From an uncultured Clostridia bacterium (lineage in GTDB: Bacteria; Bacillota; Clostridia; Oscillospirales; CAG-272), in the NCBI GenBank assembly GCA_944381115.1, contig CALWJV010000006.1, positions 15,559-79,558 of the forward strand: DNA of 64,000 bases, read 5' to 3'. The notes below the pieces were generated by a model. The model was not told the DNA's origin. It searched no databases and was given only the letters and a program-made list of their open reading frames with translations. Shown here piece by piece: positions 49,259-62,785 of this stretch (the stretch's first letter is position 1; every line of letters begins with the position of its first letter). The position numbers and the translations under genes are program-made.

Positions 49259-49300
49259 AAAAAAGTCCCCGGAAAGAAAAATTTTCCGGAGACTTTTTTT
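49259..49300. terminator. Bidirectional Rho-independent terminator
   Basis: AAAAAAGTCCCCGGAAA...TTTCCGGAGACTTTTTT between clpC and azlD. Confidence 0.75.
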
Positions 49301-49613
49301 AAATCAGATACATCATTACAAATTCAACAATAAAAACTACCGAACACGATGCAATCGCTACTTTAAAAAGACCTGCACCGAACCATGCAAGCACTACTCC
49401 GACTATCAGCGCTATCGCACCGGAAACCGGAGATTGCGTCGCTTCAATAATTGCCGGAAATGTCATTACCGACAAAGTAACATAAGGAACATAATATAAA
49501 AAAGACTTTAAAAACCTGTTTTTTATCTGTCTGCGTATAAGAACAATGGGAAGCATTCTGATAAGATAGGTAACACTTGCCATAATCAAAATATAAATGT
49601 ATATTTTGAGCAT
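49299..49613 (-). CDS. azlD: AzlD-family branched-chain amino acid transport protein
   Basis: VTYLIRMLP, FLYYVPY; small hydrophobic; 1-bp overlap with azlC. Confidence 0.85.
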   Translation of the reverse strand: MLKIYIYILIMASVTYLIRMLPIVLIRRQIKNRFLKSFLYYVPYVTLSVMTFPAIIEATQSPVSGAIALIVGVVLAWFGAGLFKVAIASCSVVFIVEFVMMYLI

Positions 49614-50356
49614 TATTTTACTTCCTCCGTTTCTTCATCATCTTTTCGGGGAAATAAAATTGCCGCAAAAGCAGAAACAAATATCGTAAGTATGATCGTC
49701 ACTGTGCCGTCGGTGAGTCCCCAAGAATCGGGAACATACCTCGATGCATAACTTAAAACAAAACATATAATAATAATGCCTGATATAACTTTGTTTTTTC
49801 TTGCAGGAGGAATTATTATCGCCAGAAACATTCCGTAAAGAGCAACGCTCAATGCACTTACTATGCTTGTCGGTAACCATGTACCGGCAAGGGCGCCTAT
49901 GACCGTACCCAAAGCCCACAAAGGAACAGCGGTAAACGCCGCTCCGTATATGTAGTACGGGTTTAAAAATCCGTCCCTTGCCATTGTGATACCAAAGATC
50001 TCATCGGTCACAAAGTAACTGCTGAAAAATCTGTGAGAAAGTTTTTCTTCTGGTGAAAATTTCTGACTGAGGGCACAACTCATAAGCATGTATCTTGCAT
50101 TTATGACAAATGTCATTATAGCAACTTCAAGATATGCTGCATTTTTTGATATAAGATCAAACCCGGCATACTCGCCTGCAGATGCAATACACAGCAGGCT
50201 TGCCAAAAACGACTGAAAAACGGAAAGTCCGGAATTTTTTGCCATTATACCGAGGGCAAACGATACCGCAAGATACCCAAGTCCTATCGGCACGGCATCT
50301 CTCATCCCTTCCGCAAATACCTTTTTGCGTCCTTTTTTTATGTCCAAAAGGTCCAT
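49613..50356 (-). CDS. azlC: AzlC-family branched-chain amino acid permease
   Basis: PIGLGYLAVSF, INARYMLMS, VTDEIF; ATG 50356 preferred over TTG 50377. Confidence 0.88.
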   Translation of the reverse strand: MDLLDIKKGRKKVFAEGMRDAVPIGLGYLAVSFALGIMAKNSGLSVFQSFLASLLCIASAGEYAGFDLISKNAAYLEVAIMTFVINARYMLMSCALSQKFSPEEKLSHRFFSSYFVTDEIFGITMARDGFLNPYYIYGAAFTAVPLWALGTVIGALAGTWLPTSIVSALSVALYGMFLAIIIPPARKNKVISGIIIICFVLSYASRYVPDSWGLTDGTVTIILTIFVSAFAAILFPRKDDEETEEVK

Positions 50357-50525
50357 TTCCTTGCTCCAATTCAACAATTTAATCCGATGTATTCAGGCGG
50401 TAACTTTATGCCCTTGAAAAAAATTTCAAAGGGCATTTTATTGCTTTACACGAGAAGGCGAATATAATTTTATACTCTAATGTATTTAAAAATTACTTCT
50501 TTTTTTGAAATTTTACAATTTTTAA

Positions 50526-51341
50526 TTATGTAGCGGCTATTCCGAAAACCTTCGCGGCATTGTACCCGAGAAGTTTTTTGTATTCTTCCTCGGAAAAGCC
50601 GAGAGACATGAGTTTTGAAAGTTCTTCCGATGCATCCCACATCGGATAATCGGTAGCAAACATAACTCTGTCTATTCCGAACGCCATAATATATTCTTTC
50701 ACTTTCTCATTTGGCAAAAACGGGAAAGACGATGAACAGTCGACATAAAGATTTTCAAATTTCGGAAGTTTCTTTGTTGCTTCTTCCCAGACCGACCAGC
50801 CTCCGAGGTGAGCGCCTATTATAATAAGGTCCGGAAAACTTTTAAGTACCGGGATAAGTTGATCGGGGTTGGAATTGTTGTACCTATAATCACCCGTGTG
50901 CATCAGTATCGGAAGTCCGTGATTTTCGCAAAGCTCGTATATCTTCATACACTTTTTGTCGTCTATTCTGAAATTCTGAATATCGGGGTGGAGTTTTACG
51001 CCGTGAAGCGAAAGTTCGCACAGGTGATCAAAATCGCCTTCAATATCGGCGCTGTCGGGATGAAGCGTACCGAGTCCGGTGAGTTTTCCTTTGTACTCTG
51101 CTTCCTCTTTTGCGATAAATTCATTGATGCTTTTTACCTGCTTCGGTACCGAGGCGACGGATTGTACCACAAAATGGTCGATCCCGACCTTTGTACCCTC
51201 TTTGACCATGTCTCCTGCAATTCCGTTTTTCAGCGAATGAAGGCCGTAAAATGTATTTGTACCGTTAACGGCTCTTTCCGCTATTTTTTCCGGATAGATA
51301 TGACAGTGCGCATCCACCGTAAAAAATTTATTTTGATACAT
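50526..51341 (-). CDS. Amidohydrolase-2 family metal-dependent hydrolase
   Basis: DAHCH, GVKLHP, MHTGD, AHLGG, FATDYP; TAATG overlap with upstream gene. Confidence 0.88.
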   Translation of the reverse strand: MYQNKFFTVDAHCHIYPEKIAERAVNGTNTFYGLHSLKNGIAGDMVKEGTKVGIDHFVVQSVASVPKQVKSINEFIAKEEAEYKGKLTGLGTLHPDSADIEGDFDHLCELSLHGVKLHPDIQNFRIDDKKCMKIYELCENHGLPILMHTGDYRYNNSNPDQLIPVLKSFPDLIIIGAHLGGWSVWEEATKKLPKFENLYVDCSSSFPFLPNEKVKEYIMAFGIDRVMFATDYPMWDASEELSKLMSLGFSEEEYKKLLGYNAAKVFGIAAT

Positions 51342-53860
51342 TATGCCGTCACCACTTTTGCTGCTTTTTGGAGTCCGAGTTTTTCAATAGCTTCCTCACG
51401 CATTTTATACTTAAGGATCTTTCCGGCTACATTCATCGGAAACTCCTTTACAAAGTCTATATATTTCGGTACTTTATGCCTTGCCATATGGGCATTGATA
51501 TATTCTTTCATCTCCTCGGAGGTCATGGTCTCACCGTCTTTCAGAATTATACAAGCCATTATCTCTTCACCGTACTGCTCATCGGGAACGCCTATTACCT
51601 GAACGTCCTTTACCTTCGGATGGGTATAGATGAACTCCTCTATTTCCTTCGGGTAAATATTCTCACCGCCGCGGATAATCATGTCTTTGAGACGACCGGT
51701 GATACGGTAGTTTCCTTCTTTCGTGCGGCAGGCAAGGTCTCCGGTATGGAGCCAGCCATCCTTGTCAATCGCGGAGGCGGTCGCCTTGGGCATCTTGTAG
51801 TATCCCTTCATTATGTTATAACCTCTTGCAACAAACTCGCCAGTGACCTCATCCGGACACTCTTCTCCCGTTTCTGGGTCAACTATCTTACATTCGATCT
51901 CAGGGAGCGCGCGTCCGACGGTTCCGACTCTGACTTCAATCGGGTCATCTGTCGAACTCATAGTACATCCGGGAGATGCCTCCGTCTGACCGTAAACTAT
52001 CGTTATTTCGTCCATGTGCATCTTCTTTATAACATCGCGCATAACGGAAATCGGGCAGGGGCTTCCAGCCATAATACCGGTACGCATATGCGAAAAATCG
52101 GTCTTTGCAAAGTCCTCATGTTCAAGAAGTGCAATAAACATCGTGGGAACTCCGTGGAATGCGGTTATCCTCTCGGCGTTTATACATGCAAGCGCCGGTT
52201 TCGGTGCGTAATACGGGAGCGGGAGGAGTGTAACTCCGTGTGTCATACTTGCGGTCATGGCAAGGACCATTCCGAAACAGTGGAACATCGGGACCTGTAT
52301 CATCATTCTGTCCGCGGTGGAAAGATCCATTCTGTCTCCGATACATTTACCGTTATTTACGACATTGTAATGAGTAAGCATAACGCCCTTGGGGAATCCC
52401 GTGGTTCCGGAAGTATACTGCATATTGCATACGTCATCCTTATCAACGGCGTCTGCTCTTCTGTATACCTCTTCGACCGGTACCATATCCGCCCTTGCTA
52501 TCGTCTCTTCCCATGTCAGACAGCCCTTTTGTTTAAATCCTACGGTAATTACGTTGCGGAGGAAAGGCAGACGGCGGCTGTGAAGAGGCGTTCCAGGTTT
52601 TGTATTTGCGAGTTCTGGACAAAGTTCTGCAATGATCTCAGAGTAATTTGAATCACGGTAACCGTCGATCATGACAAGCGTATGAGTATCTGACTGCTTC
52701 AAAAGGTATTCGGCCTCGTGAATCTTATATGCGGTGTTCATTGTGACGAGAACTGCTCCTATTTTCGTTACCGCCCAGAATGCTATATACCACTGAGGTA
52801 TATTCGTTGCCCAGACCGCTACGTGGTCTCCGGGCTTTACGTTAAGAGAGATAAGACTGCGGGCGAAAGTATCGACGTCCTTGCGGAACTCATAGTATGT
52901 TCTTGTATAGTCAAGCGTCGTGTACTTGAATGCAAGTTTATCGGGAAATTCCTCTACCATACGGTCAAGTACCTTCGGGAAGGTCAGATCGATCAGCATT
53001 TCCTTTTTCCAGATATATCTGCCGGTGTGGGCTTTGTTGTAATAAAGCGAGCTATCCGACTTTGAGGTGTCGCTGAACTGGCTCATAAAGTTTTCAAACT
53101 GTGACAGTACTATTTCGAGGTCATCGATCTCTTCGCACCATTTCGGATCCCATTCAAGTGAGATAAAGCCGTTATAGTTGACCGAACGCAGTGCGCAGAT
53201 AAGTTCGTTTATCGGGAGACTTCCCTCCCCCACAAGGCAATAATTTATGCCTTTATCAGTCTTTTCGGCATCCTTTATATGAATGTGCTTTACGTAAGCG
53301 CCAAGAGTTTCGATCGTGGTCTCGGGAGACTGTTCCGCTATAAAACAAGTGGAATAAACATCCCACAGTGCGGAAAGGCTGTCACTTGCAAAACTGTCGA
53401 GCATGTCGCGCAATTTTTTTGCGTCACTGAACAGTCCGCTTGTTTCAAGAAGGATGTCTACCCCTGCGTTTTCCGCTATGGGGAGTATTTGGGAAAGGAA
53501 TCCACGCACTGTATCAAAATCGTTTTCTCCGTGGGAGGACGCATGTACTCTTATATAAGGTATATGAAGGTTTTCGGCGATCTTTATGCACTCTTTGAGT
53601 TCTTCCATTGCCTCTTCGGACTTTTCCGTATCGGCGGGATCGCATATGCTGTCTATGCACGGAATGCTGAGTTTCATCTCATAAAGTCTTCTGAGCGTTG
53701 CGGCGGTCGCGTATTCATTGAATGCGCTATCACTGCTTGTAAAGAGTTTGTTTTTTATATTGTGAAGTTCTATTCCGGAAAAGCGAAGATCTTTTGCTAT
53801 ATCGCAAAACTGCTCAAAACTTTTTCCGTGCCAACCCTTTGTTGAAAATGAAAGTTTCAT
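51341..53860 (-). CDS. Fusion: xylose isomerase-like TIM barrel plus AMP-forming acyl-CoA synthetase
   Basis: aa ~1-260: LLET, WD, HIHIKD, SLEW; C-terminal part: YTSGTTGFPKG, YGQTE, GWLHTGD, GRLKDMIIRGGEN, GKILK. Confidence 0.9.
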   Translation of the reverse strand: MKLSFSTKGWHGKSFEQFCDIAKDLRFSGIELHNIKNKLFTSSDSAFNEYATAATLRRLYEMKLSIPCIDSICDPADTEKSEEAMEELKECIKIAENLHIPYIRVHASSHGENDFDTVRGFLSQILPIAENAGVDILLETSGLFSDAKKLRDMLDSFASDSLSALWDVYSTCFIAEQSPETTIETLGAYVKHIHIKDAEKTDKGINYCLVGEGSLPINELICALRSVNYNGFISLEWDPKWCEEIDDLEIVLSQFENFMSQFSDTSKSDSSLYYNKAHTGRYIWKKEMLIDLTFPKVLDRMVEEFPDKLAFKYTTLDYTRTYYEFRKDVDTFARSLISLNVKPGDHVAVWATNIPQWYIAFWAVTKIGAVLVTMNTAYKIHEAEYLLKQSDTHTLVMIDGYRDSNYSEIIAELCPELANTKPGTPLHSRRLPFLRNVITVGFKQKGCLTWEETIARADMVPVEEVYRRADAVDKDDVCNMQYTSGTTGFPKGVMLTHYNVVNNGKCIGDRMDLSTADRMMIQVPMFHCFGMVLAMTASMTHGVTLLPLPYYAPKPALACINAERITAFHGVPTMFIALLEHEDFAKTDFSHMRTGIMAGSPCPISVMRDVIKKMHMDEITIVYGQTEASPGCTMSSTDDPIEVRVGTVGRALPEIECKIVDPETGEECPDEVTGEFVARGYNIMKGYYKMPKATASAIDKDGWLHTGDLACRTKEGNYRITGRLKDMIIRGGENIYPKEIEEFIYTHPKVKDVQVIGVPDEQYGEEIMACIILKDGETMTSEEMKEYINAHMARHKVPKYIDFVKEFPMNVAGKILKYKMREEAIEKLGLQKAAKVVTA

Positions 53861-55248
53861 TTTGTTTTCTCCTCATACACTGTTTTGTTTACCGCATTGA
53901 TATAAGCCTTTATTGATGCTTCCATTATATCGGTGGAAATGCCGTTTCCGGAGTAAACCTTACCGTCGTTACGGAGTTTTACCAAAGCATATCCCATGGC
54001 TTCCTGTCCTTCAGTTACCGACTGTATCTGGAAATCGTCCAGTTCGAAACGGCGTCCTATTATCTGACTGAGCGTCTTAAATGAGGCGTCTATCGGGCCG
54101 TCTCCTGTTGAGATTCCGCTTATATATTTTCCGTCTTTTTCAAGTTTTATCTGAGCGGACGAATCAATTATATTACCGTTATTTATAAGGTAACTTACGA
54201 GTTTGTACGTCGGCGGTACTTGAAGCGCAACACTCGATACTATCGCATCAAGATCCTTTGCAGTTATCTTTTTCTTCTCCGCAACACGTTTGAACTCCTC
54301 ATAAACTCTTTTAAGATCGTCATCCGAAAGGTCGTATCCGAGTTTCTTTACGGCGTCAAAAATACTTTCCTCGCTGTCGTGTACATCGAATACATTTACA
54401 TTGTCGGAAATTTCGATCTTAGTAGATGCGTTAACTTTCTTACCGCCTTCAATCCACTCTATCTGATTTACACTGCGGTTAAGTATATTGTAATTTATAC
54501 CGGAGAAAAGCCCGCATCTTTCTCCGCAACCGAAAAGTATCTTTGCAAAATCGTCAAGTCCGGTGATATCCTTTTTGCCTACACAGCATTTTATTTCATC
54601 AACACTGGCCTTTGCCGCCATGACTGCGGAAGCGCTTGCCATACCGTTCGTGTTTTTACATACCACGCCGACAGTAACTTTTTCAAGTTCCGGTATGTTT
54701 GTATAAGTATCTTTTATAAAAGCGGCAAATTCGTCTGGAAGCATTGCGCCTTCGTCATCGCAAAGGGTTACGGCTTTTACTCCCGCGTCTATTGCGCCGA
54801 TTACCATTTCACGAAGGAATGCACTGTCGGCGCGTGTTGCGTCTTCGGCATAAAACTCCACATTTTCGCATTTTGCCGTTGCCGCGGCAAAAATCTCTTT
54901 TGCAAAAATCACCATTTTTGCCGGTTTTTTATGATAAACATACTCCATCTGTATCGAGGAAACAGGGAGCCTTACTGCCATACGGGCATTTTTCGAGCCG
55001 GATATCGCGGCGGCGGCGGCATCTATGCTTTCCGTGCTGCTTCCTGATTCTACACAGAGGGCACTGTTTTTTATAAATGCGGAAACTGTACGTATAAGAA
55101 GCGAATCCGCTTTTGTATTCTCTATCTTCGGCATATATATAACATCAACATTAAGGTTATCAAGGCATCTTGCGACCTCAATCTTTTCTTTAAATGATAA
55201 TGTCGGATAGACTGTAAGAGTCATATCAGAAATTATAATCTTTTTCAC
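53857..55248 (-). CDS. LeuA (2-isopropylmalate synthase)-like protein with degenerate catalytic domain and intact regulatory domain
   Basis: VEFYAEDATRAD and LPDEF recognisable; GDGPIDA and STDIMEASIKAYINA retained; DRE and HxH motifs absent; GTG start after GAAAGG. Confidence 0.85.
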   Translation of the reverse strand: MKKIIISDMTLTVYPTLSFKEKIEVARCLDNLNVDVIYMPKIENTKADSLLIRTVSAFIKNSALCVESGSSTESIDAAAAAISGSKNARMAVRLPVSSIQMEYVYHKKPAKMVIFAKEIFAAATAKCENVEFYAEDATRADSAFLREMVIGAIDAGVKAVTLCDDEGAMLPDEFAAFIKDTYTNIPELEKVTVGVVCKNTNGMASASAVMAAKASVDEIKCCVGKKDITGLDDFAKILFGCGERCGLFSGINYNILNRSVNQIEWIEGGKKVNASTKIEISDNVNVFDVHDSEESIFDAVKKLGYDLSDDDLKRVYEEFKRVAEKKKITAKDLDAIVSSVALQVPPTYKLVSYLINNGNIIDSSAQIKLEKDGKYISGISTGDGPIDASFKTLSQIIGRRFELDDFQIQSVTEGQEAMGYALVKLRNDGKVYSGNGISTDIMEASIKAYINAVNKTVYEEKTK

Positions 55249-55277: not shown

Positions 55278-55560
55278 AAAAAAAGCCCCCGAAGCCATAA
55301 TGGCTTCAGGGGCGAATTTATCCGTGTTACCACCCTGTTTACCGCAAAATACGGTCACTCTGTGAGGCTCTGACAAGCCTTTTGCCTTGATAACGGAGCA
55401 ATCCGGAATCTCTTAATGAACCATGCTTGTACGGCAAAACAGGTCTGTTCGGAGATTCTGCTCGGGAATGAGACTTTATCCGTCTTCCGCATATCGGACT
55501 TACACCAAATGCCGACTCTCTGTGACGCTTTCAAACGGAAAATAATTCCTTCTTAGCATT
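55278..55560 (-). ncRNA. T-box riboswitch, probable Leu specifier (CUC)
   Basis: Stem I with AGAGA and GGUG, specifier CUC-A at 55472-55469 before closing UUCC, CCGUUAUC box, T-box AGGGUGGUAACACG (55336-55323), terminator hairpin 55278-55313 with U-tract. Confidence 0.9.
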
Positions 55561-55583
55561 TTCTCATGTTTGACAACGAATTA

Positions 55584-55612
55584 ATTATACCACAAAGAAA
55601 GACACTTTTCAA
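55584..55612 (-). promoter_or_regulatory. Sigma-A promoter of the Leu T-box operon
   Basis: Minus strand TTGAAA-17 bp-TATAAT with TG extension. Confidence 0.7.
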
Positions 55613-55662: not shown

Positions 55663-56727
55663 TTACTTTATCGGGACTGTCCAGCCGTACTTATCTTCAA
55701 TCTTACCCCACTGGATTCCGGTAAGAGTATCATAAAGATGAGAGGTTACCTCTCCGATCTTTCCGTCGTTGATTATGTACTTGACATCTTTATAGCAGAG
55801 TTCGCCAATAGGAGAAACAACAGCCGCCGTTCCGGTTCCCCATGCCTCTTCGAGTTTGCCGTCTGCAAGAGCCTTACCGATCTCATCGATGCTTATGCGT
55901 CTTTCGCTGACTTTATATCCTTCTGCTCTGAGAATTTCGAGGCACGACTTTCTTGTTATACCGGGAAGTATGGATCCGGTAAGTTGAGGAGTTACGACCT
56001 CGCCGTCGATCTTAAACATTACGTTCATTGCACCGACCTCTTCGATATATTTACGTTCTACACCGTCAAGCCAGAGTACCTGAGAATAACCCTTTTCTTC
56101 CGCCTTTTCGCCTGCACGGTTACTTGCGGCATAGTTACCTCCGCACTTTGCTTCTCCGGTACCGCCTCTTACGGCTCTGACGTCTTCCGCTTCTATCATG
56201 ATCTTAACGGGGTTTATACCCTCTTTATAATAACTTCCGACGGGAGATGTGATGATCATAAATGTTGCATGCTTTACGGAATGAACTCCGAGAGTCTCGT
56301 CGTTTCCGAACATAAACGGACGGATGTAAAGCGATGTTCCGGGTGCAGAAGGTACCCAATCTTGCTCGAATTTAATAAATTCGGTAAGAATTTGCATTGC
56401 GGTATCTTCCGGTATCTGCGGAAGGCAGAGACGCTCTGCGGAACGGTTCATCCTGCGTATGTTTTCCATCGGTCTGAAAAGTTGAACACTTCCATCGGAC
56501 TTTCTATACGCTTTGAGACCTTCGAAGACCTCGGAGCCGTAATGAAGTGCCGTACATGCGGGATGAAGTTCTATCTTTCCGAACGGAACTATTCTTGCAT
56601 CATGCCAGCCTTTTTCGGGATTATATTCCATAATGAACATATGATCGGTAAAATATTTACCGAATCCGAGTACAGAAGCCTCGGGCTTTACCGCCGGAGC
56701 GGTCGTTTTTGTTATTTTGATTTCCAT
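55663..56727 (-). CDS. ilvE: Branched-chain amino acid aminotransferase
   Basis: FGKYFTDHM, FEGLKAY, LYIRPF, AKCGGNYA (PLP Lys), EEVGAMN, ILPGITR. Confidence 0.96.
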   Translation of the reverse strand: MEIKITKTTAPAVKPEASVLGFGKYFTDHMFIMEYNPEKGWHDARIVPFGKIELHPACTALHYGSEVFEGLKAYRKSDGSVQLFRPMENIRRMNRSAERLCLPQIPEDTAMQILTEFIKFEQDWVPSAPGTSLYIRPFMFGNDETLGVHSVKHATFMIITSPVGSYYKEGINPVKIMIEAEDVRAVRGGTGEAKCGGNYAASNRAGEKAEEKGYSQVLWLDGVERKYIEEVGAMNVMFKIDGEVVTPQLTGSILPGITRKSCLEILRAEGYKVSERRISIDEIGKALADGKLEEAWGTGTAAVVSPIGELCYKDVKYIINDGKIGEVTSHLYDTLTGIQWGKIEDKYGWTVPIK

Positions 56728-56904
56728 GACTTATTCATCTCCGAAATTAAATCAAATTTTTGTCGTCCGGCAGATCCGAAAGACTTTCCGTAACGGAAAA
56801 ACCTTCGAAAATTACCGTGCGTAATAAAATCTCAGTATTCTGAATCGCCGGTCTTGCATGTCTTTTTTCTTAACTCATACGAAAGACATACTATTTACCG
56901 GTTT

Positions 56905-57450
56905 TCAGTTTTCTTTATAGTTTTTTCCGAGGATCATTGCACTTAGATTGGTTTCGAGCATATCGATATGTCTTGCCGAAATTACTTTTTTCAGTGCGGC
57001 ATCAACTGCTTCCTTGTCGTCAAACTCTCCGTTCTCCTTAAGAACTTTACCCATAATGATCATGTTTGCAAGAGTAGGAATATTGTTATCCGACGCCATC
57101 TGTGTTGCTGGAATATAGAAAACGTTTACATCCGCTCTCTTTACCTTGCGATCTATAAGTGTTGAATCAACATAGATCGTTCCACCGGGAACGACGCTGT
57201 CCTCGTATCTGTCAAGTGACGGAAGGTTCATTGCGATAAGTACATCTGGTTTTGAAACTATCGGAGAACCGACCGGTATGTCGCTTATAATAACGCTACA
57301 ACTTGCGGTTCCTCCTCTCATTTCGGGTCCGTATGAAGGAAGCCAACTTACATTCGCACCGTCTATAAGGCCTTTATAAGCAAGGAATTTTCCTGCAAAC
57401 AGAATTCCCTGACCGCCGAATCCGGCGATAAGATACTGTGTTGTTTTCAT
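56905..57450 (-). CDS. 2-oxoacid:ferredoxin oxidoreductase gamma subunit
   Basis: [17 protein letters not shown]; ATG 57450 after AAGGAG. Confidence 0.93.
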
Positions 57451-57463
57451 TGTATTTTCCTCC

Positions 57464-58207
57464 TTATTTCTGTGCAGATCTGTCCTTATATACACCAAGA
57501 GGGTAATAAGGAATCATTTTTTCATCGATCCACTTGAGAGCCTTTTCCGGAGTAAGTCCCCAGTTAGTCGGACAACTTGAAATTACTTCAACAAAGGAAA
57601 ATCCCTTTCCGTTTACCTGGTTTTCAAAAGCCTTCTTTATGGCCTTTTTTGCATTTTTTATGTTCTTAACATTATTTACGGCAACACGCTCAATGTACTC
57701 GGGACCGTCAAGTTGCGAAAGCATCTCACAGACCTTTATCGGGTAACCGCAGAGGTTTACGTCTCTTCCGTAAGGAGATGTCTGCGTGACCTGTCCGGGA
57801 AGGGATGTAGGAGCCATCTGTCCGCCTGTCATACCGTATATTGCGTTATTAATAAATATAATAGTAATATTTTCATTTCTTGCGGCGGAGTGGACCGTTT
57901 CTGCCATACCTATGGAAGCCAGGTCTCCGTCACCCTGATATGTAAATACTATGTTCTCGGGGTCGGAACGTTTTACACCTGTTGCAACTGCCGGAGCACG
58001 TCCGTGAGCCGCTTCTATCATATCACAGTTAAAATAATCATATGCCATAACAGAACAGCCGACAGGTGCTATTCCGATCGTTCTGCCTTCTATTCCGAGT
58101 TCATCGATTACCTCGGCAACAAGACGGTGGATTATACCGTGTGTACATCCGGGACAGTAATGAAACGGTACGTCGGAAAGAGCATGCGGTTTATCAAATA
58201 CTACCAT
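57464..58207 (-). CDS. 2-oxoacid:ferredoxin oxidoreductase beta subunit (TPP-binding)
   Basis: YCPGCTHG, HGRAPAVATG, GDGD...NN TPP motif, YGMTGGQ, CPTNW. Confidence 0.93.
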   Translation of the reverse strand: MVVFDKPHALSDVPFHYCPGCTHGIIHRLVAEVIDELGIEGRTIGIAPVGCSVMAYDYFNCDMIEAAHGRAPAVATGVKRSDPENIVFTYQGDGDLASIGMAETVHSAARNENITIIFINNAIYGMTGGQMAPTSLPGQVTQTSPYGRDVNLCGYPIKVCEMLSQLDGPEYIERVAVNNVKNIKNAKKAIKKAFENQVNGKGFSFVEVISSCPTNWGLTPEKALKWIDEKMIPYYPLGVYKDRSAQK

Positions 58208-59274
58208 TAGTTATTACCTCCTTTTTCCGCCGCGGCTTCTATTGCGGCAAGTACCTGCTCCGGAGACGGTATCATACCTCCAGTACGGTTGCAAAGCGTT
58301 ACATCCGCTTTTCCGTTTACGGCAAGTTTTATGTCTTCGATCATCTGACCCATCGAAAGTTCAACGGATATAAACGTTTTTGCTTTTTCTGCCGCTTTTG
58401 CAATTTGCTTTTCTGGGAACGGCCAAAGCGTTATAGGTCTGATCATACCCGCTTTAATACCTTTTTTGCGTGCCTCGTTAATAGCGTTCTTGGAAACACG
58501 AGCAGCAATACCGAATGCTACAATGCAGATCTCCGCATCTTCCATAAGATAATCTTCATATCTGACTTCGTTCTGCTTTATTGTCTCGTAACGCTGATAG
58601 CGATCATAGTTTGTTTTTTCAAGAATTTCGGGTTTGAGGAAGAGAGAGTTTATTATGTTATGCTTTCTCTGCATCTTAGTTCCAGTGACCGCCCATGGTT
58701 TTTCTATGCTCTTTTCTACCGGAATGTCAAGGGAAACAGGCTCCATCATCTGTCCCATCGTTCCATCTGCAAGGATCATAGAAGTCATGCGGTATTTATC
58801 CGCAAGTTCAAATCCTTTGACGGTAAGTTCCGCCATTTCCTGAACGGAAGCAGGGGCAAGAACAATCATATGGAAATCTCCGTGAGCTCCACCCTTTGTT
58901 GCCTGGAAGTAGTCGGACTGCGAGGGCTGAATACCCCCGAGTCCCGGCCCGCCTCTCTGAACATTTATGACAAGTGCCGGAAGATCGGCTCCTGCCAGAT
59001 ATGACAAGCCTTCTCCTTTAAGAGATATTCCGGGACTGCTTGAAGATGTCATTACACGCTTGCCCGTTGAGGATACGCCGTATACCATGTTAATCGCTGC
59101 GATCTCGCTCTCGGCTTGAAGAAATACTCCGCCTATTTTAGGCATTCTTTTTGCCATGTAAGCAGCAATCTCGGTCTGAGGTGTTATCGGATAGCCGAAA
59201 TAATGTCTGCATCCTGCGATGATAGCCGCTTCGGCAATCGCTTCGTTACCTTTCATTAAAACCTTATCTGCCAT
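58207..59274 (-). CDS. vorB: 2-ketoisovalerate:ferredoxin oxidoreductase alpha-type subunit (VorB family)
   Basis: GYPITPQTE, QAESEIAAINM, TSSSSPGISL, RGGPGLG, QSDYFQATKGG. Confidence 0.88.
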   Translation of the reverse strand: MADKVLMKGNEAIAEAAIIAGCRHYFGYPITPQTEIAAYMAKRMPKIGGVFLQAESEIAAINMVYGVSSTGKRVMTSSSSPGISLKGEGLSYLAGADLPALVINVQRGGPGLGGIQPSQSDYFQATKGGAHGDFHMIVLAPASVQEMAELTVKGFELADKYRMTSMILADGTMGQMMEPVSLDIPVEKSIEKPWAVTGTKMQRKHNIINSLFLKPEILEKTNYDRYQRYETIKQNEVRYEDYLMEDAEICIVAFGIAARVSKNAINEARKKGIKAGMIRPITLWPFPEKQIAKAAEKAKTFISVELSMGQMIEDIKLAVNGKADVTLCNRTGGMIPSPEQVLAAIEAAAEKGGNN

Positions 59275-59283
59275 TTTAAAGTC

Positions 59284-59490
59284 CTACCTTTCTACCTTGA
59301 TTATACAGTCAGGACACATCGTAGCACAGAATGCGCAGCCAATGCATGCGACCTCGTTTACTGCTTCTACTGGGTGATGTCCTTTTTGATTGATTTTGTC
59401 GGCGGCAAGTGCAAGTACGCCTTTTGGGCAGACGCCTACGCAAAGACCGCATCCCTTACAATTGTCGGTTTTAAATGTCAGTTTTGCCAT
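59284..59490 (-). CDS. 2[4Fe-4S] ferredoxin (oxidoreductase delta subunit)
   Basis: Two CxxCxxCxxxCP motifs. Confidence 0.93.
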   Translation of the reverse strand: MAKLTFKTDNCKGCGLCVGVCPKGVLALAADKINQKGHHPVEAVNEVACIGCAFCATMCPDCIIKVER

Positions 59491-59504
59491 TGTAAACTCT
59501 CCTT

Positions 59505-60164
59505 TTACATATATTTTTGCAAATTTATCGGATATAAATTTTTTATCTTTCCTTCAAGTTCCGGCAGAAGTTTTTTATACACTGTTGTATAAGCTATCGG
59601 AAGACCCGTTCTTTTTGCGACCTCTTCTACAAACGGTACTGATAAAAGAACTGTATTCGTGTCTGTCTCTTTGCCTAAATTGGAGTTATTTATGATAGAG
59701 GTAAATTTTAGTCTGCACGCCTGTTCTATCTCCGTCATGACCTCTATGGCACTTTCAGGAGTACTTGTAAGCGGTCTGTATTTATTTACCACATATATCA
59801 TTTCGTAATTGTTTTCCTGCTGTATCTTCGGAACCAGTCTTCCCAGAGCCAAAGCACCCCGCTCGTCTCCTCCAACGTCAAGTATACTGTAAAGCGTCTT
59901 GTCATCGGTAACAGCATACATCTCCTGAGGGAGCGCCGGAATATCAACATTGCTGTTAGCATATTTTGAGCAGATCAGCCGTATACCGTTTTTATTCAGT
60001 AGATCTTCGCTGTCCTTTGTACGGAAATACGGATTGACTATATCGATGTCCGCTATCGCGGTATTTTCGTGTTGTTTTTTTAGATCGAGTGAAAGGGATA
60101 CGGCAATATTTGTCTTACCGCTTCCGTAATGTCCCGATATTATAGTAATTCGTTTGAAATCCAT
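59505..60164 (-). CDS. P-loop ATPase (MinD/ParA/CobQ-like) associated with vor genes
   Basis: GHYGSGKTN, DIDIVNPYFRT, LDVGGD; ATG 60164 after GAGG. Confidence 0.85.
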   Translation of the reverse strand: MDFKRITIISGHYGSGKTNIAVSLSLDLKKQHENTAIADIDIVNPYFRTKDSEDLLNKNGIRLICSKYANSNVDIPALPQEMYAVTDDKTLYSILDVGGDERGALALGRLVPKIQQENNYEMIYVVNKYRPLTSTPESAIEVMTEIEQACRLKFTSIINNSNLGKETDTNTVLLSVPFVEEVAKRTGLPIAYTTVYKKLLPELEGKIKNLYPINLQKYM

Positions 60165-60178
60165 CGCGTTGCCTCTTA

Positions 60179-62464
60179 TCAAAGTTTGTTACGCTGGATC
60201 TTTCCGCTTGTCGTTTTGGGAAGTTCATCTCTGAAAACAACTATTCTCGGGTATTTGTAAGGAGCAGTATGAGTTTTTACGTAATCCTGTATCTCTTTTT
60301 TAAGCGCTTCGGACGGCTCGGTTCCTTTTACAAGAACGACGCTTGCCTTGACGACCTGTCCTCTTACCTCATCAGGAGCGGCGGAAACACCGCATTCGAG
60401 AACATAAGGAAGTTCCATAATAACGCTTTCTATCTCAAACGGACCTATGCGGTAACCGGAAGACTTTATAACGTCGTCAACACGTCCGACATACCAGTAG
60501 AATCCGTCCTCATCGCGCCATGCAACGTCTCCGGTGTGGTAGTAACCGTCGTGGCGTACCTCAGCGGTCTTTTCCGGGTCGTTGTAGTACTCGGTAAACA
60601 GTCCGCATGGAGAGCCGTTGGCAATATTTACAACTATCTCTCCGGACTCACCGACTGCCGCAGGCTTTCCTTCAGGAGTAAGAAGTTCAACATCGTATAT
60701 CGGTGCCGGCTTACCCATGGAACCTATTTTATGCGGAGCACCTGTCAGGTTTCCTATGATCATTGTACTTTCCGACTGACCGAATCCTTCAAGGATCTGA
60801 AGTCCCGTCGCCTTTTCAAACTGTCTGTAAACCTCCGGGTTGAGCGCTTCTCCCGCCGTCGTCATATGCTTAATGGAAGAAAGATCGTATTTTGAGATAT
60901 CTTCCTTTATCATCATACGGAGCATCGTGGGTGGTGCGCAGAATGTCGTGATATTGTATTTTGCAAACATCGGAAGTATATCCGCTGCGTTGAAGCGATC
61001 GAAATCGTATACGAACGTTGCCGCTTCGCAGAGCCACTGACCGTAAAATTTACCCCACATGGCCTTTGCCCATCCAGTATCGGATATGGTAAAGTGGAGC
61101 CCGTCCGGGCAGACGTTGTGCCAATATTTTGCAGTGTGGAAATGACCAAGCGCATATTTATAATTATGAACTGCAATCTTCGGGTATCCCGTCGTTCCCG
61201 AGGTAAAGAACATGAGCATAGTGTCGTCGCCGCCGGGAGTCTGTTCAGTACGTTCGAAATGCGTACTGAAAAGTTCGCATTCTTCGTCAAAATTTCTCCA
61301 ACCTTCGCGGTTTCCGCTGACTATCAGTTTATATACAAGTGTCGGGCATTTATCCGCAACAAAGTCGACCTGCTCGGCAGCGATTCCGTTTCCTGCGCAG
61401 ATTATGGCTTTTACTCCCGCCTTGTTGAAACGATATTCGTAGTCATGAGAAAGAAGTTGATTCATTGCGGGGATCGCAATAGCACCTATCCTGTTAAGCC
61501 CCAAAACAGCATACCAAAACTGATAGTGACGTCCGAGTACCAGCATGACTTTGTCGCCTTTTTTTATACCGAGCGATTTGAAATAGTTGGCCGCCCTGCA
61601 TGAAAGCCTTTTCATATCTTTGAATGTGAATCGAGTCTCCTTTTTATCGGCAGATATATGGAGCATCGCAAGTTTATCTGGTGATTTTTTTGCAATTTCA
61701 TCTATAATATCAAAGGCAAAATTGAATTTTTCAATATTTTTGAATTTAATGGATATCGGGGTACCGTTTTCGTTTTCAACTACATCGACAAACTTTTTGT
61801 ATACACGGTCCTCGGTGTCCTTGCTTACCGACGCTTGTGACTTTGATACCGGTGCTTCAAGTTCCGCATCCGGCTCTCCCGCCGGGTTAAGGACCATCGC
61901 GTAAAAGTAACAATCCTCTCCTCCAATGGCTATCATTCCGTGTGGCGTTGCACTGTCGTAGTAAATAGTATCGCCCGCTCCGAGAATCTCGCTGTGATCC
62001 CCTATCTGCACCTTAAGATGTCCTTTTATAACTATATCGCATTCCTGACCTTCGTGAGTCGTAAGTTCTATTGGCTTTTCCTGAGCCTCTTTGCTGTATT
62101 CACTGCAAACGTACAAAGGCTCGGCTATCCTGTTTTTAAACGAGGGTGCAAGGTTGTAATAAGTCATACCATGCGCCTGTTCGATCTTTTGTCCGCCGCC
62201 GCTTCTTGTAAGCGTATAGGACATCAGTTTCGGGCTTTGTCCCGCTATGATATCAGTAACGTCGACGTTAAAAGCGGCCGCACAACGGTATATAAAAGCA
62301 AAATTAAGATCGGAGTGACCGTTCTCGCATTCTATGTACTCCTGCTCGCTGACATCAGTCTTTACAGCCATCTCGGCCGTACTGAGCCCTTCTATCTCAC
62401 GGAGTTCTTTTATTCTCTCCGCCATTTCCCTGATCTTCAAATCAAGTCCTGTTGCATTTTTCAT
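60179..62464 (-). CDS. Fusion: XRE HTH-cupin plus medium-chain acyl-CoA synthetase
   Basis: RIKELRE...ENG HTH, cupin HEGQE/YYDSATPHGM, then FTSGTTGYPK, DTGWAKAMWGKFYGQW, GFGQSE, YYHTGD, PKTTSGK; ATG 62464 after GGAAAGG. Confidence 0.92.
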   Translation of the reverse strand: MKNATGLDLKIREMAERIKELREIEGLSTAEMAVKTDVSEQEYIECENGHSDLNFAFIYRCAAAFNVDVTDIIAGQSPKLMSYTLTRSGGGQKIEQAHGMTYYNLAPSFKNRIAEPLYVCSEYSKEAQEKPIELTTHEGQECDIVIKGHLKVQIGDHSEILGAGDTIYYDSATPHGMIAIGGEDCYFYAMVLNPAGEPDAELEAPVSKSQASVSKDTEDRVYKKFVDVVENENGTPISIKFKNIEKFNFAFDIIDEIAKKSPDKLAMLHISADKKETRFTFKDMKRLSCRAANYFKSLGIKKGDKVMLVLGRHYQFWYAVLGLNRIGAIAIPAMNQLLSHDYEYRFNKAGVKAIICAGNGIAAEQVDFVADKCPTLVYKLIVSGNREGWRNFDEECELFSTHFERTEQTPGGDDTMLMFFTSGTTGYPKIAVHNYKYALGHFHTAKYWHNVCPDGLHFTISDTGWAKAMWGKFYGQWLCEAATFVYDFDRFNAADILPMFAKYNITTFCAPPTMLRMMIKEDISKYDLSSIKHMTTAGEALNPEVYRQFEKATGLQILEGFGQSESTMIIGNLTGAPHKIGSMGKPAPIYDVELLTPEGKPAAVGESGEIVVNIANGSPCGLFTEYYNDPEKTAEVRHDGYYHTGDVAWRDEDGFYWYVGRVDDVIKSSGYRIGPFEIESVIMELPYVLECGVSAAPDEVRGQVVKASVVLVKGTEPSEALKKEIQDYVKTHTAPYKYPRIVVFRDELPKTTSGKIQRNKL

Positions 62465-62498
62465 AATACATTTCCTTTCCATTTTATGGGAAGCAGAC

Positions 62499-62775
62499 AA
62501 AAAGCCCGTCCCAAAGATTTTCTTTGAGACGAGCCTGAAATTCAAACCCGCGGTACCACTCAAATTGCAGTATAGACTGCCTCCTCAGGGTCAATAAACC
62601 CTTTCGCACTTACGCGGCTGTCACGGGGAGGGTCTACGGAAAATTCTTTCTTCCTCCCGGCTCGGAAGTTACAAACTTCAAGATCTCGTTTAACGGCTTT
62701 CACCATAAAACCCCGTAGAGTTTAATACCGTCTCTCTGCAAAACTACGTTCTCAAGTCCTCTTCGTCAACGCCTT
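62499..62775 (-). ncRNA. T-box riboswitch, probable Val specifier (GUA)
   Basis: Stem I with AGAGA and GGUGAAA, specifier GUA-A at 62672-62669 before closing CUUC, T-box UUGAGUGGUACCGCG (62563-62549), terminator GCUCGUCUCAAAGA/UCUUUGGGACGGGC plus U-tract. Confidence 0.9.
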
Positions 62776-62785
62776 TAATACCAAC

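Follow-up and report, generated by a model that had tools for sequence, protein, structure and literature searches.

The 64,000-nucleotide window analysed here (the whole stretch of DNA, from contig CALWJV010000006.1 of assembly GCA_944381115.1, an uncultured Clostridia bacterium of the order Oscillospirales) carries on its minus strand an operon whose first gene encodes a protein with both Pfam domains of 2-isopropylmalate synthase (IPMS, the LeuA protein). Judged from its sequence, this gene, called pseudo-LeuA below, is a pseudoenzyme descended from the short form of that synthase, with both domains still predicted to fold, and its product appears no longer able to bind metal or keto acid. 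The operon runs from a promoter-like site and a T-box leader through pseudo-LeuA, an 839-amino-acid (aa) fusion of a TIM domain to an acyl-coenzyme A (acyl-CoA) ligase, an Amidohydro_2 gene, AzlC and AzlD to a terminator-like hairpin (Table 1). Pseudo-LeuA is translated from a GTG start that lines up with Met1 of its orthologues, a candidate ribosome-binding site (AAGGA) lies 9 nt before the GTG, and its stop codon overlaps the start codon of the fusion in the sequence ATGA. The original prediction for this DNA had described a catalytically dead LeuA with a preserved regulatory domain and an intact frame, preceded by a ribosome-binding site and a leucine T-box and overlapping the ligase gene. 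Translation confirms its coordinates and every motif it quoted; the frame, the AAGGA and the CUC specifier are all in place, and the residue comparison that follows bears out the dead active site, the missing HExGxH segment and the preserved regulatory domain.

Pfam recognizes both halves of the ancestral enzyme, matching HMGL-like (PF00682) at aa 16-223 with 95.7 bits and LeuA_dimer (PF08502) with 115.5 bits against a cut-off of 24.9. The NCBIfam equivalogs for LeuA all score far under their cut-offs (the best, NF002086, at 267.6 bits versus 532, and TIGR00973 at 233.7 versus 598.7), and in profile searches the family is claimed by none of the NCBIfam models. To locate the losses, 42 family members were aligned with 26 true short-form LeuAs of the same order, using positions at least 90% conserved in LeuA and counting a position as kept when at least 90% of the family retains it and as lost when no more than 10% does. 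The catalytic domain has 74 such positions, with 15 kept and 29 lost; the accessory region has 26, with 2 kept and 15 lost; and the regulatory domain has 14, with 10 kept and a single one lost, through a D-to-E change at a LeuA-invariant position that is fixed in 100% of the family. The metal ligands, which are the Asp of DTTLRDGEQ and both His of the HxH motif, are each kept in 2% of the 42 members; in the window protein, which reads DMTLTVYPT at aa 8-16 and VCKNT at aa 196-200, they are replaced by V13, V196 and K198. Only 29% of the family retain the substrate Arg (T12 in the window) and 24% the catalytic Glu141, while the invariant LeuA Glu of 'QxE' has become Lys in 95%. The GERA of the GERAGN loop is deleted in 98-100% of the family, the window protein having CVGKKDIT at aa 222-229, and the H-E-x-G-x-H-Q block of the accessory region is deleted in every one of the 42 members. 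Positions on the catalytic face of the barrel vary within the family and have not been re-fixed. Two papers bear on these residues: substitutions of R80 and E218 abolish the activity of Mycobacterium tuberculosis IPMS (PMC10464499), the roles of R80, E218 and H379 are covered between them (PMC10464499; PMC9860122), and the accessory domain is said to hold residues for both catalysis and allostery, with the C-terminal domain binding leucine (PMC9860122).

The regulatory domain has fared differently. LeuA_dimer is matched in all 42 members, and GDGPIDA (aa 382-388 of the window protein) is invariant or nearly so; SVTEGQEAMG and STDIMEAS follow at aa 410-419 and 438-445. Some 12 further C-domain positions are invariant in the family beyond those conserved in LeuA. 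Ten positions of the regulatory domain distinguish LeuA from CimA; the family shows the LeuA state at nine of them and the CimA state at none, a comparison that used only six CimA sequences and whose outcome descent from LeuA would in part predict.

An AlphaFold2 model built from the 42 orthologues has a mean predicted local distance difference test score (pLDDT) of 86.9. It contains eight beta/alpha units at pLDDT above 90, a disordered stretch at residues 271-284, three helices, and the C-terminal domain made of a beta-beta-beta-alpha unit repeated twice. The best Foldseek matches of the model are M. tuberculosis LeuA structures, including the leucine-bound 3FIG, and the barrel superposes on the truncated IPMS structures 3rmj, 3eeg and 3ewb with a root-mean-square deviation of 1.7-1.9 Å. 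Further matches include the DRE-TIM aldolases 1nvm, 4jn6 and 4lrs, which work in complexes with CoA-dependent dehydrogenases.

Table 1. Coordinates of the pseudo-LeuA operon, its protein domains and the neighbouring operon (positions in the window)
Feature	Position	Strand	Evidence or remark
Promoter-like site TTGAAA-17-TATAAT, with TG	55584..55612	-	11/12 consensus matches; consensus match only, not evidence of function
T-box leader	55305..55563	-	RF00230, 96.4 bits vs gathering score 93
T-box specifier CUC (Leu)	55470-55472	-	
T-box sequence	55322-55335	-	
T-box terminator hairpin	55285-55313	-	13-bp stem then U run
Pseudo-LeuA, 463 aa	53857..55248	-	Pfam, residue loss, AlphaFold2 model, Foldseek
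Pseudo-LeuA, dead (beta/alpha)8 barrel	aa 1-250 = 54499-55248	-	
Pseudo-LeuA, shortened accessory region	aa 251-327		disorder aa 271-284
Pseudo-LeuA, LeuA_dimer regulatory domain	aa 328-456 = 53881-54267	-	
TIM-ligase fusion, 839 aa	51341-53860	-	xylose-isomerase-like TIM + acyl-CoA ligase
Fusion, N-terminal xylose-isomerase-like TIM (AP_endonuc_2)	53006..53860	-	Pfam, 88.5 bits; degenerate active-site signature
Fusion, acyl-CoA ligase domain (AMP-binding + AMP-binding_C)	51341..53005	-	PRK12583-like, 705 bits, under 832 cut-off
Amidohydrolase_2 (Amidohydro_2) protein, same operon	50526..51341	-	Pfam
AzlC	49613-50377	-	branched-chain transporter pair with AzlD, operon end
AzlD	49299-49613	-	branched-chain transporter pair with AzlC
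Terminator-like hairpin, operon end	49259-49299		
Neighbouring context operon	55663..62778	-	Val T-box, HTH-cupin-acyl-CoA synthetase, ParA-like, VorD, VorA/B/G, IlvE
Neighbouring operon, T-box	62522-62778	-	69.9 bits, sub-threshold
Neighbouring operon, T-box specifier GUA (Val)	62670-62672	-	
Neighbouring operon, genes after the T-box	55663-62563	-	
Neighbouring operon, HTH-cupin-acyl-CoA synthetase	60179-62563	-	MbcS-like, 437 bits, below cut-off

Pseudo-LeuA belongs to one selected, monophyletic family whose sequences point to a single origin. A word-index search returned at least 120 clusters among the matches listed, at 53-100% identity and 457-516 aa in length, and in an exhaustive search well over 100 representatives at the 50%-identity level (about 455-480 aa) ranked ahead of the first true LeuAs. 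It had been foreseen that automated annotation would likely miscall such a protein as leuA, and this holds for the ESM Atlas, which lacks the sequences of the window itself but in which relatives bear the automatic name 'putative 2-isopropylmalate synthase'; it does not hold for NCBI, where all four named homologue clusters are called 'hypothetical protein'. Open frames of 455-473 aa occur in 42 of 42 orthologues from other genomes, and with so many repeats the pattern cannot be put down to chance. In a tree, the family forms one clade (42/42; support of 100 in the Shimodaira-Hasegawa-like approximate likelihood ratio test, SH-aLRT; stem 0.67) among the LeuAs of the order and apart from CimA-like sequences. 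The ratio of nonsynonymous to synonymous substitution (dN/dS), taken from pairs with unsaturated dS, is 0.06-0.09 in the barrel (the N domain) and 0.01-0.05, mostly 0.02-0.04, in the regulatory (C) domain; in the neighbouring fusion it is 0.03-0.11 over the TIM part and 0.013-0.04 over the ligase part. Both domains of pseudo-LeuA are thus under purifying selection, the C domain at the lower ratio, which supports a non-catalytic LeuA derivative maintained by selection, with the constraint concentrated in the regulatory domain. Mean pairwise identity among 106 family representatives is 35% in the barrel, 24% in the linker and 57% in the regulatory domain; the order is reversed in seven LeuAs, a small sample chosen by similarity to the query, at 45%, 41% and 37%, respectively.

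Full-length, single-piece matches to pseudo-LeuA occur in 73 of the 301 genomes sampled from the order and in 77 of 400 sampled from the class, where the family is spread across many taxonomic families. Among the other genomes of the order, 129 have no match, and in 99 the query aligns only in two pieces, with proteins of about 500-540 aa that are true short-form LeuA or CimA. No carrier among the 73 has a second match at an expect value (E) of 1e-20 or better. Among the sequencing runs listed as containing this DNA there is no RNA run, and the DNA runs come from three studies.

The companion of pseudo-LeuA is constant. The linkage set consisted of 43 loci (the window, two loci from metagenome-assembled genomes and 40 more retrieved from genomes within the order), and in 43 of 43 the TIM-ligase fusion lies directly downstream on the same strand, with a gap of no more than 10 nt in 39 and overlapping genes in 12. 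In this set the orthologues are neither frameshifted nor unlinked from the ligase. Across these loci, identity to the window is 70-96% for the ligase, falling to as little as 38% for pseudo-LeuA and 29% for the TIM domain; aligned over its full 839 aa, the fusion has a mean column identity of 71% among 42 orthologues. The original prediction had named the adjacent ligase or Vor as the likely partner. As a conserved neighbour the ligase qualifies; Vor does not, as Vor, IlvE and the ligases with helix-turn-helix (HTH) and cupin domains are mostly found within 9 kb but do not appear in the flanks retrieved for about 11 of the 43 loci. Roughly half of the loci have the Amidohydro_2 gene next to the pair, where it follows the ligase or, at three loci, precedes pseudo-LeuA, and only two, the window and L007, have AzlCD. 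The closest relative of the Amidohydro_2 protein is the uncharacterised BB4693 (3irs).

The reverse relationship is looser. Searched with the 839-aa query at E of 1e-120 or better, 176 of the 301 genomes contain the ligase, in three forms: the fusion with pseudo-LeuA, the fusion without it, and a ligase-only orthologue. Pseudo-LeuA beside the ligase-only form was never seen. In the ligase tree, whose root is unsure on account of a very long outgroup branch, the pseudo-LeuA-linked ligases form one clade (43/43, SH-aLRT 100), with the ligase-only forms grouped to one side (16/16). Among 20 fetched fusions without pseudo-LeuA, 19 have no LeuA-like neighbour. One locus, L091 (G091:C35), has a true LeuA (663 bits), a CimA (587 bits), a CUC T-box and a TIM-ligase fusion in a row, an arrangement that is possibly a picture of what the pseudo-LeuA operon arose from.

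Beyond anything in the original prediction, the TIM domain fused to the ligase is also degenerate in the clade that carries pseudo-LeuA. This domain has only weak matches, to epimerases and isomerases. In fusions without pseudo-LeuA its mean identity is 60% and it has an enzyme-like signature: all 20 of 20 share the residues E139, D167, H169, H170, R173, H194, D197, E236 and K239, and likewise R33 and N141. The pseudo-LeuA clade has a mean TIM identity of 42%, and the E-D-H-D-E signature is kept in 16 of 43, the window included. H169 is kept in 6 of 43, H170 in 5 and R173 in 8, while R33, N141 and K239 are each kept in none or one, and the TIM domain in the window lacks all six of these. Fusions without pseudo-LeuA have 84 TIM positions with at least 95% conservation; in the fusions that accompany pseudo-LeuA, 27 of these are kept and 25 lost. 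In the same comparison the ligase domain has 332 such positions, with 256 kept and 10 lost. The mean ligase identity in fusions without pseudo-LeuA is 81%. The lost ligase positions lie within fusion residues 605-724. Three of the ten, 711, 719 and 724, flank the GR(L/I)KD motif at 722-726, which we take to be the A8 hinge of the enzyme superfamily; the ligase surface near this motif could be regulatory. In a mirror-tree analysis, which is confounded by shared descent, distances for the pseudo-LeuA domains track those for the TIM domain and those for the ligase to a similar degree (r 0.68-0.77, with every partial r positive at 0.29-0.47), so that neither is singled out as the contact domain.

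Predicted control by a leucine T-box is found with all forms of the ligase. The leader in the window contains the T-box sequence AGGGUGGUAACACGG and its CUC specifier is followed by A, a purine; the matching tRNA-Leu(GAG) is encoded in the host genome. An Rfam T-box lies just upstream of pseudo-LeuA in 15 of 20 orthologous loci, with the aligned specifier CUC in 14 and CUG in one, such that all 16 T-box leaders read upstream of pseudo-LeuA, including that of the window, carry Leu codons. Fusions without pseudo-LeuA have a T-box-like leader with a CUC specifier in 15 of 20 fetched loci, the Rfam gathering score being reached in two of the seven submitted. Ligase-only loci have an upstream T-box in 9 of 16, five at gathering score, and all nine read CUC. 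With a predicted Leu T-box in all three architectures, the ligase is, as read from these leaders, itself regulated by leucine, with or without pseudo-LeuA. In L032, a divergent T-box with an AUC (Ile) specifier faces one of the HTH-cupin ligases. The host genome has eleven Rfam T-box model matches, six of them above gathering score.

The host genome (G000; 1.8 Mb, 95.3% complete) makes clear what pseudo-LeuA does not accompany. It is the only LeuA_dimer protein of that genome, as it is in five other carriers, and profile searches of the host genome found no LeuA, LeuB or LeuC equivalogs and no IlvD. For IlvC there is only a 30-bit partial KARI_N match and no real IlvC; the other HMGL-like proteins are limited to a homocitrate/Re-citrate-synthase-like protein and OadA; the sole Iso_dh protein is isocitrate dehydrogenase (IDH)-like; and the sole aconitase-family protein is the PRK11413 hydratase. 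VorB and IlvE both exceed their NCBIfam cut-offs, at 543.2 versus 399 and 482.5 versus 307, respectively. In a cross-tabulation over the order, LeuB scores over its cut-off in 4 of the 73 carriers versus 162 of the 228 other genomes. The earlier suggestion that pseudo-LeuA arose after the isopropylmalate route had been replaced therefore fits the host and nearly all carriers as a strong tendency and fails as a rule, since four carriers keep LeuB together with a long-form LeuA. The pseudo-LeuA query (P0001) misses long-form LeuA and had overlooked these proteins and the CimAs, CimA being present in G109 and G143. Strict mutual exclusion with any LeuA is thus ruled out; by these profile matches, carriers do exclude the ancestral short-form LeuA, whereas for the pathway as a whole the exclusion is strong but not absolute.

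Upstream of the pseudo-LeuA operon, the neighbouring operon looks like an isobutyrate-to-valine salvage operon. Its Val T-box precedes an HTH_3-cupin_2-acyl-CoA synthetase, a ParA/CbiA-like ATPase, the VorD ferredoxin, VorA/B/G and IlvE. The N-terminal HTH and cupin domains of the synthetase give the enzyme a transcription-factor-like head, and such HTH-cupin synthetases, seen also in L032 and many of L039-L078, often occur as two tandem paralogues. Rumen bacteria carboxylate isovalerate to leucine (PMC7356843). Its own T-box, the adjoining Vor and IlvE, the sister operon with its Val T-box and the missing de novo branched-chain genes together make it most likely that the ligase activates isovalerate, feeding a carboxylation route to leucine.

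We rate as about evenly balanced the proposal that pseudo-LeuA is a leucine-sensing, non-catalytic regulatory subunit of this putative isovalerate-CoA ligase. It would be a separate leucine-binding regulatory subunit that acts on the enzyme encoded directly downstream. The ligase would activate isovalerate, Vor would reductively carboxylate it to ketoisocaproate, and IlvE would transaminate this to leucine. Control would come in two layers: uncharged tRNA-Leu would switch the operon on through the CUC T-box, and high free leucine would act through pseudo-LeuA to damp the ligase. These would be the two layers that already govern LeuA, which is feedback-inhibited by leucine and whose real gene in this order stands under a T-box at 7 of 18 loci. 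Leucine is favoured as the ligand because the LeuA state is kept at nine of the ten discriminating positions and because PF08502 can work detached. Pseudo-LeuA may dock on the degenerate TIM domain of the fusion, since no locus was seen to pair it with the ligase-only form and since the TIM domain was the part to change when pseudo-LeuA arrived. Leucine binding, the contact with the ligase, the sign of the effect and the isovalerate substrate are all things we infer from sequence. More tentative, and a proposal we would sooner doubt than assert, is the wider picture in which a short-form LeuA, once its route was abandoned, has been stripped to a leucine receptor that docks on the second dead TIM barrel, the one fused to isovalerate-CoA ligase, two pseudoenzyme domains form an allosteric switch that moves end-product feedback from the old committed step to a new one, and the family is a widespread, unannotated class of trans-acting amino-acid sensors in gut Clostridia.

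Several observations weigh against a leucine-sensing subunit of the ligase. The barrel has invariant residues of its own (D8, E102, K108, E131, D136, R139 and D164) and is under purifying selection, which suggests that the selected barrel does something else besides. PF08502 binds isoleucine in CimA, so the ligand could differ from leucine. The fusion occurs without pseudo-LeuA in at least 43 sampled genomes, 30 with LeuB and 13 without by the cross-tabulation; the ligase therefore does not need pseudo-LeuA, and neither does every genome that has salvage as its sole route, so that pseudo-LeuA is an add-on rather than a necessity. The LeuB-bearing carriers G109, G178, G194 and G204 all hold a long-form LeuA (765-815 bits on NF002991). 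At the thresholds used, no ligase-domain substitutions are fixed in the pseudo-LeuA clade, and a natural protein joining pseudo-LeuA to the ligase did not turn up in the 7997 candidates that were scored, though this counts only weakly. The sampled genomes are also related to one another, so that the counts of genomes and loci overstate independence.

Among the other explanations, a structural partner that senses nothing is unlikely but deserves the most attention. Here pseudo-LeuA would be a scaffold or stabiliser of the ligase, or a bridge between ligase and Vor that channels isovaleryl-CoA, with the C domain as the interface. The synteny and translational coupling fit any complex, the 12 or so extra invariant C-domain positions could reflect an interface, and complex-forming DRE-TIM aldolases (1nvm, 4jn6, 4lrs) are among the Foldseek matches. 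Against it, 10 of the 14 conserved regulatory positions of LeuA are kept, G-x-G-P-x-D-A among them, as is the LeuA type at nine of ten discriminating positions; moreover, fusions without pseudo-LeuA exist and keep 81% mean ligase identity, and Vor is not consistently adjacent.

It is rather improbable that pseudo-LeuA is a regulatory subunit with another ligand (isoleucine, valine, ketoisocaproate or isovalerate) or of the opposite sign, for example one that activates the ligase. The response of PF08502 to isoleucine in CimA and the D-to-E change fixed throughout the family leave room for this, as does HisZ, which is reported to activate its partner as well as mediating inhibition (PMC9734150). 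Yet the family is nested in LeuA and not in CimA, with the CimA state at 0 of 10 positions, and 16 of 16 upstream T-box leaders carry Leu codons. A leucine sensor acting elsewhere, on Vor, IlvE, the AzlCD transporter or the amidohydrolase, has only a small probability. Vor, IlvE and other branched-chain ligases do lie within 9 kb in most loci, but the TIM-ligase alone is adjacent in 43 of 43, while Vor and IlvE are missing from about 11 flanks, AzlCD is present in two loci and Amidohydro_2 in about half. Equally small is the probability of an enzyme with a new metal-independent reaction, working alone or with the fused TIM domain: in its favour stand an intact barrel under selection, several invariant charged residues and the LeuA Glu turned to Lys in 95%, but the positions on its catalytic face are variable and have not been re-fixed, the accessory cap bearing the catalytic His is deleted, and the fused TIM domain loses its own signature in the same clade. 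A decaying, functionless leuA relic would agree with the lost active site and with a host genome in which the isopropylmalate pathway was not found, but is ruled out by 42 of 42 open frames, dN/dS well under 0.1 and one old clade across many families.

If pseudo-LeuA is a leucine-sensing subunit of the ligase, its interest lies partly in its extent. The family is large and cleanly delimited, occurring in about a quarter of the order genomes sampled and about a fifth of those of the class, and it has a nameable origin (LeuA), a likely ligand (leucine) and a likely client (the Leu-T-box ligase), which makes the idea directly testable. To our knowledge, only a few pseudoenzymes have been kept as allosteric subunits, and most of these are isolated examples like HisZ. 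The Leu-T-box ligase, in three architectures, and the Val-T-box ligase-Vor-IlvE operon also provide gene-level handles on the isovalerate-to-leucine route of gut and rumen anaerobes, long defined by physiology. For annotation, the family is a warning that both LeuA Pfam domains in one protein are not evidence of leucine prototrophy. Searches of the literature outside subscription journals and supplements turned up no account of a catalytically dead LeuA, nor any of the gene pair.

The nearest known system is short-form LeuA itself (TIGR00973 / NF002086), a DRE-TIM metallolyase and the direct ancestor, with which pseudo-LeuA shares the barrel fold, the doubled beta-beta-beta-alpha domain and frequent T-box control. 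Unlike LeuA, pseudo-LeuA has lost the metal ligands, the substrate Arg, the GERAGN loop and the HExGxH cap, scores half of the cut-off, and has an acyl-CoA ligase rather than leuBCD as its neighbour. CimA offers a precedent for PF08502 as a portable amino-acid sensor, although its domain is fused to a live catalytic domain. A separate regulatory subunit is found in the IlvH/IlvN type, in which the regulatory fold is a different one, ACT-like in IlvH. The isolated CimA domain was made into an isoleucine biosensor and IlvH is the separate regulatory subunit of acetolactate synthase (PMC13381585). For the pathway, the likeness is to the rumen isovalerate route of Allison and co-workers, in which a branched-chain acid is converted to its acyl-CoA, carboxylated by Vor and transaminated (PMC7356843); in contrast, no gene-level regulator is described for that route in the literature seen, and the ligase substrate here is a predicted one.

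The closest parallel in logic is drawn from histidine synthesis, where HisZ, a paralogue of histidyl-tRNA synthetase (HisRS), partners HisG, the short-form ATP phosphoribosyltransferase. HisZ mediates allosteric inhibition by histidine (PMC9734150). HisZ and pseudo-LeuA differ in fold, ligand and partner enzyme, and binding and allostery are demonstrated for HisZ whereas they are predicted for pseudo-LeuA. By analogy, however, the two would be alike: in each, the catalysis of the ancestor is absent and the protein would serve as the amino-acid-sensing subunit of the first enzyme of a pathway, so that the logic of pseudo-LeuA with its ligase would resemble that of HisZ with HisG.

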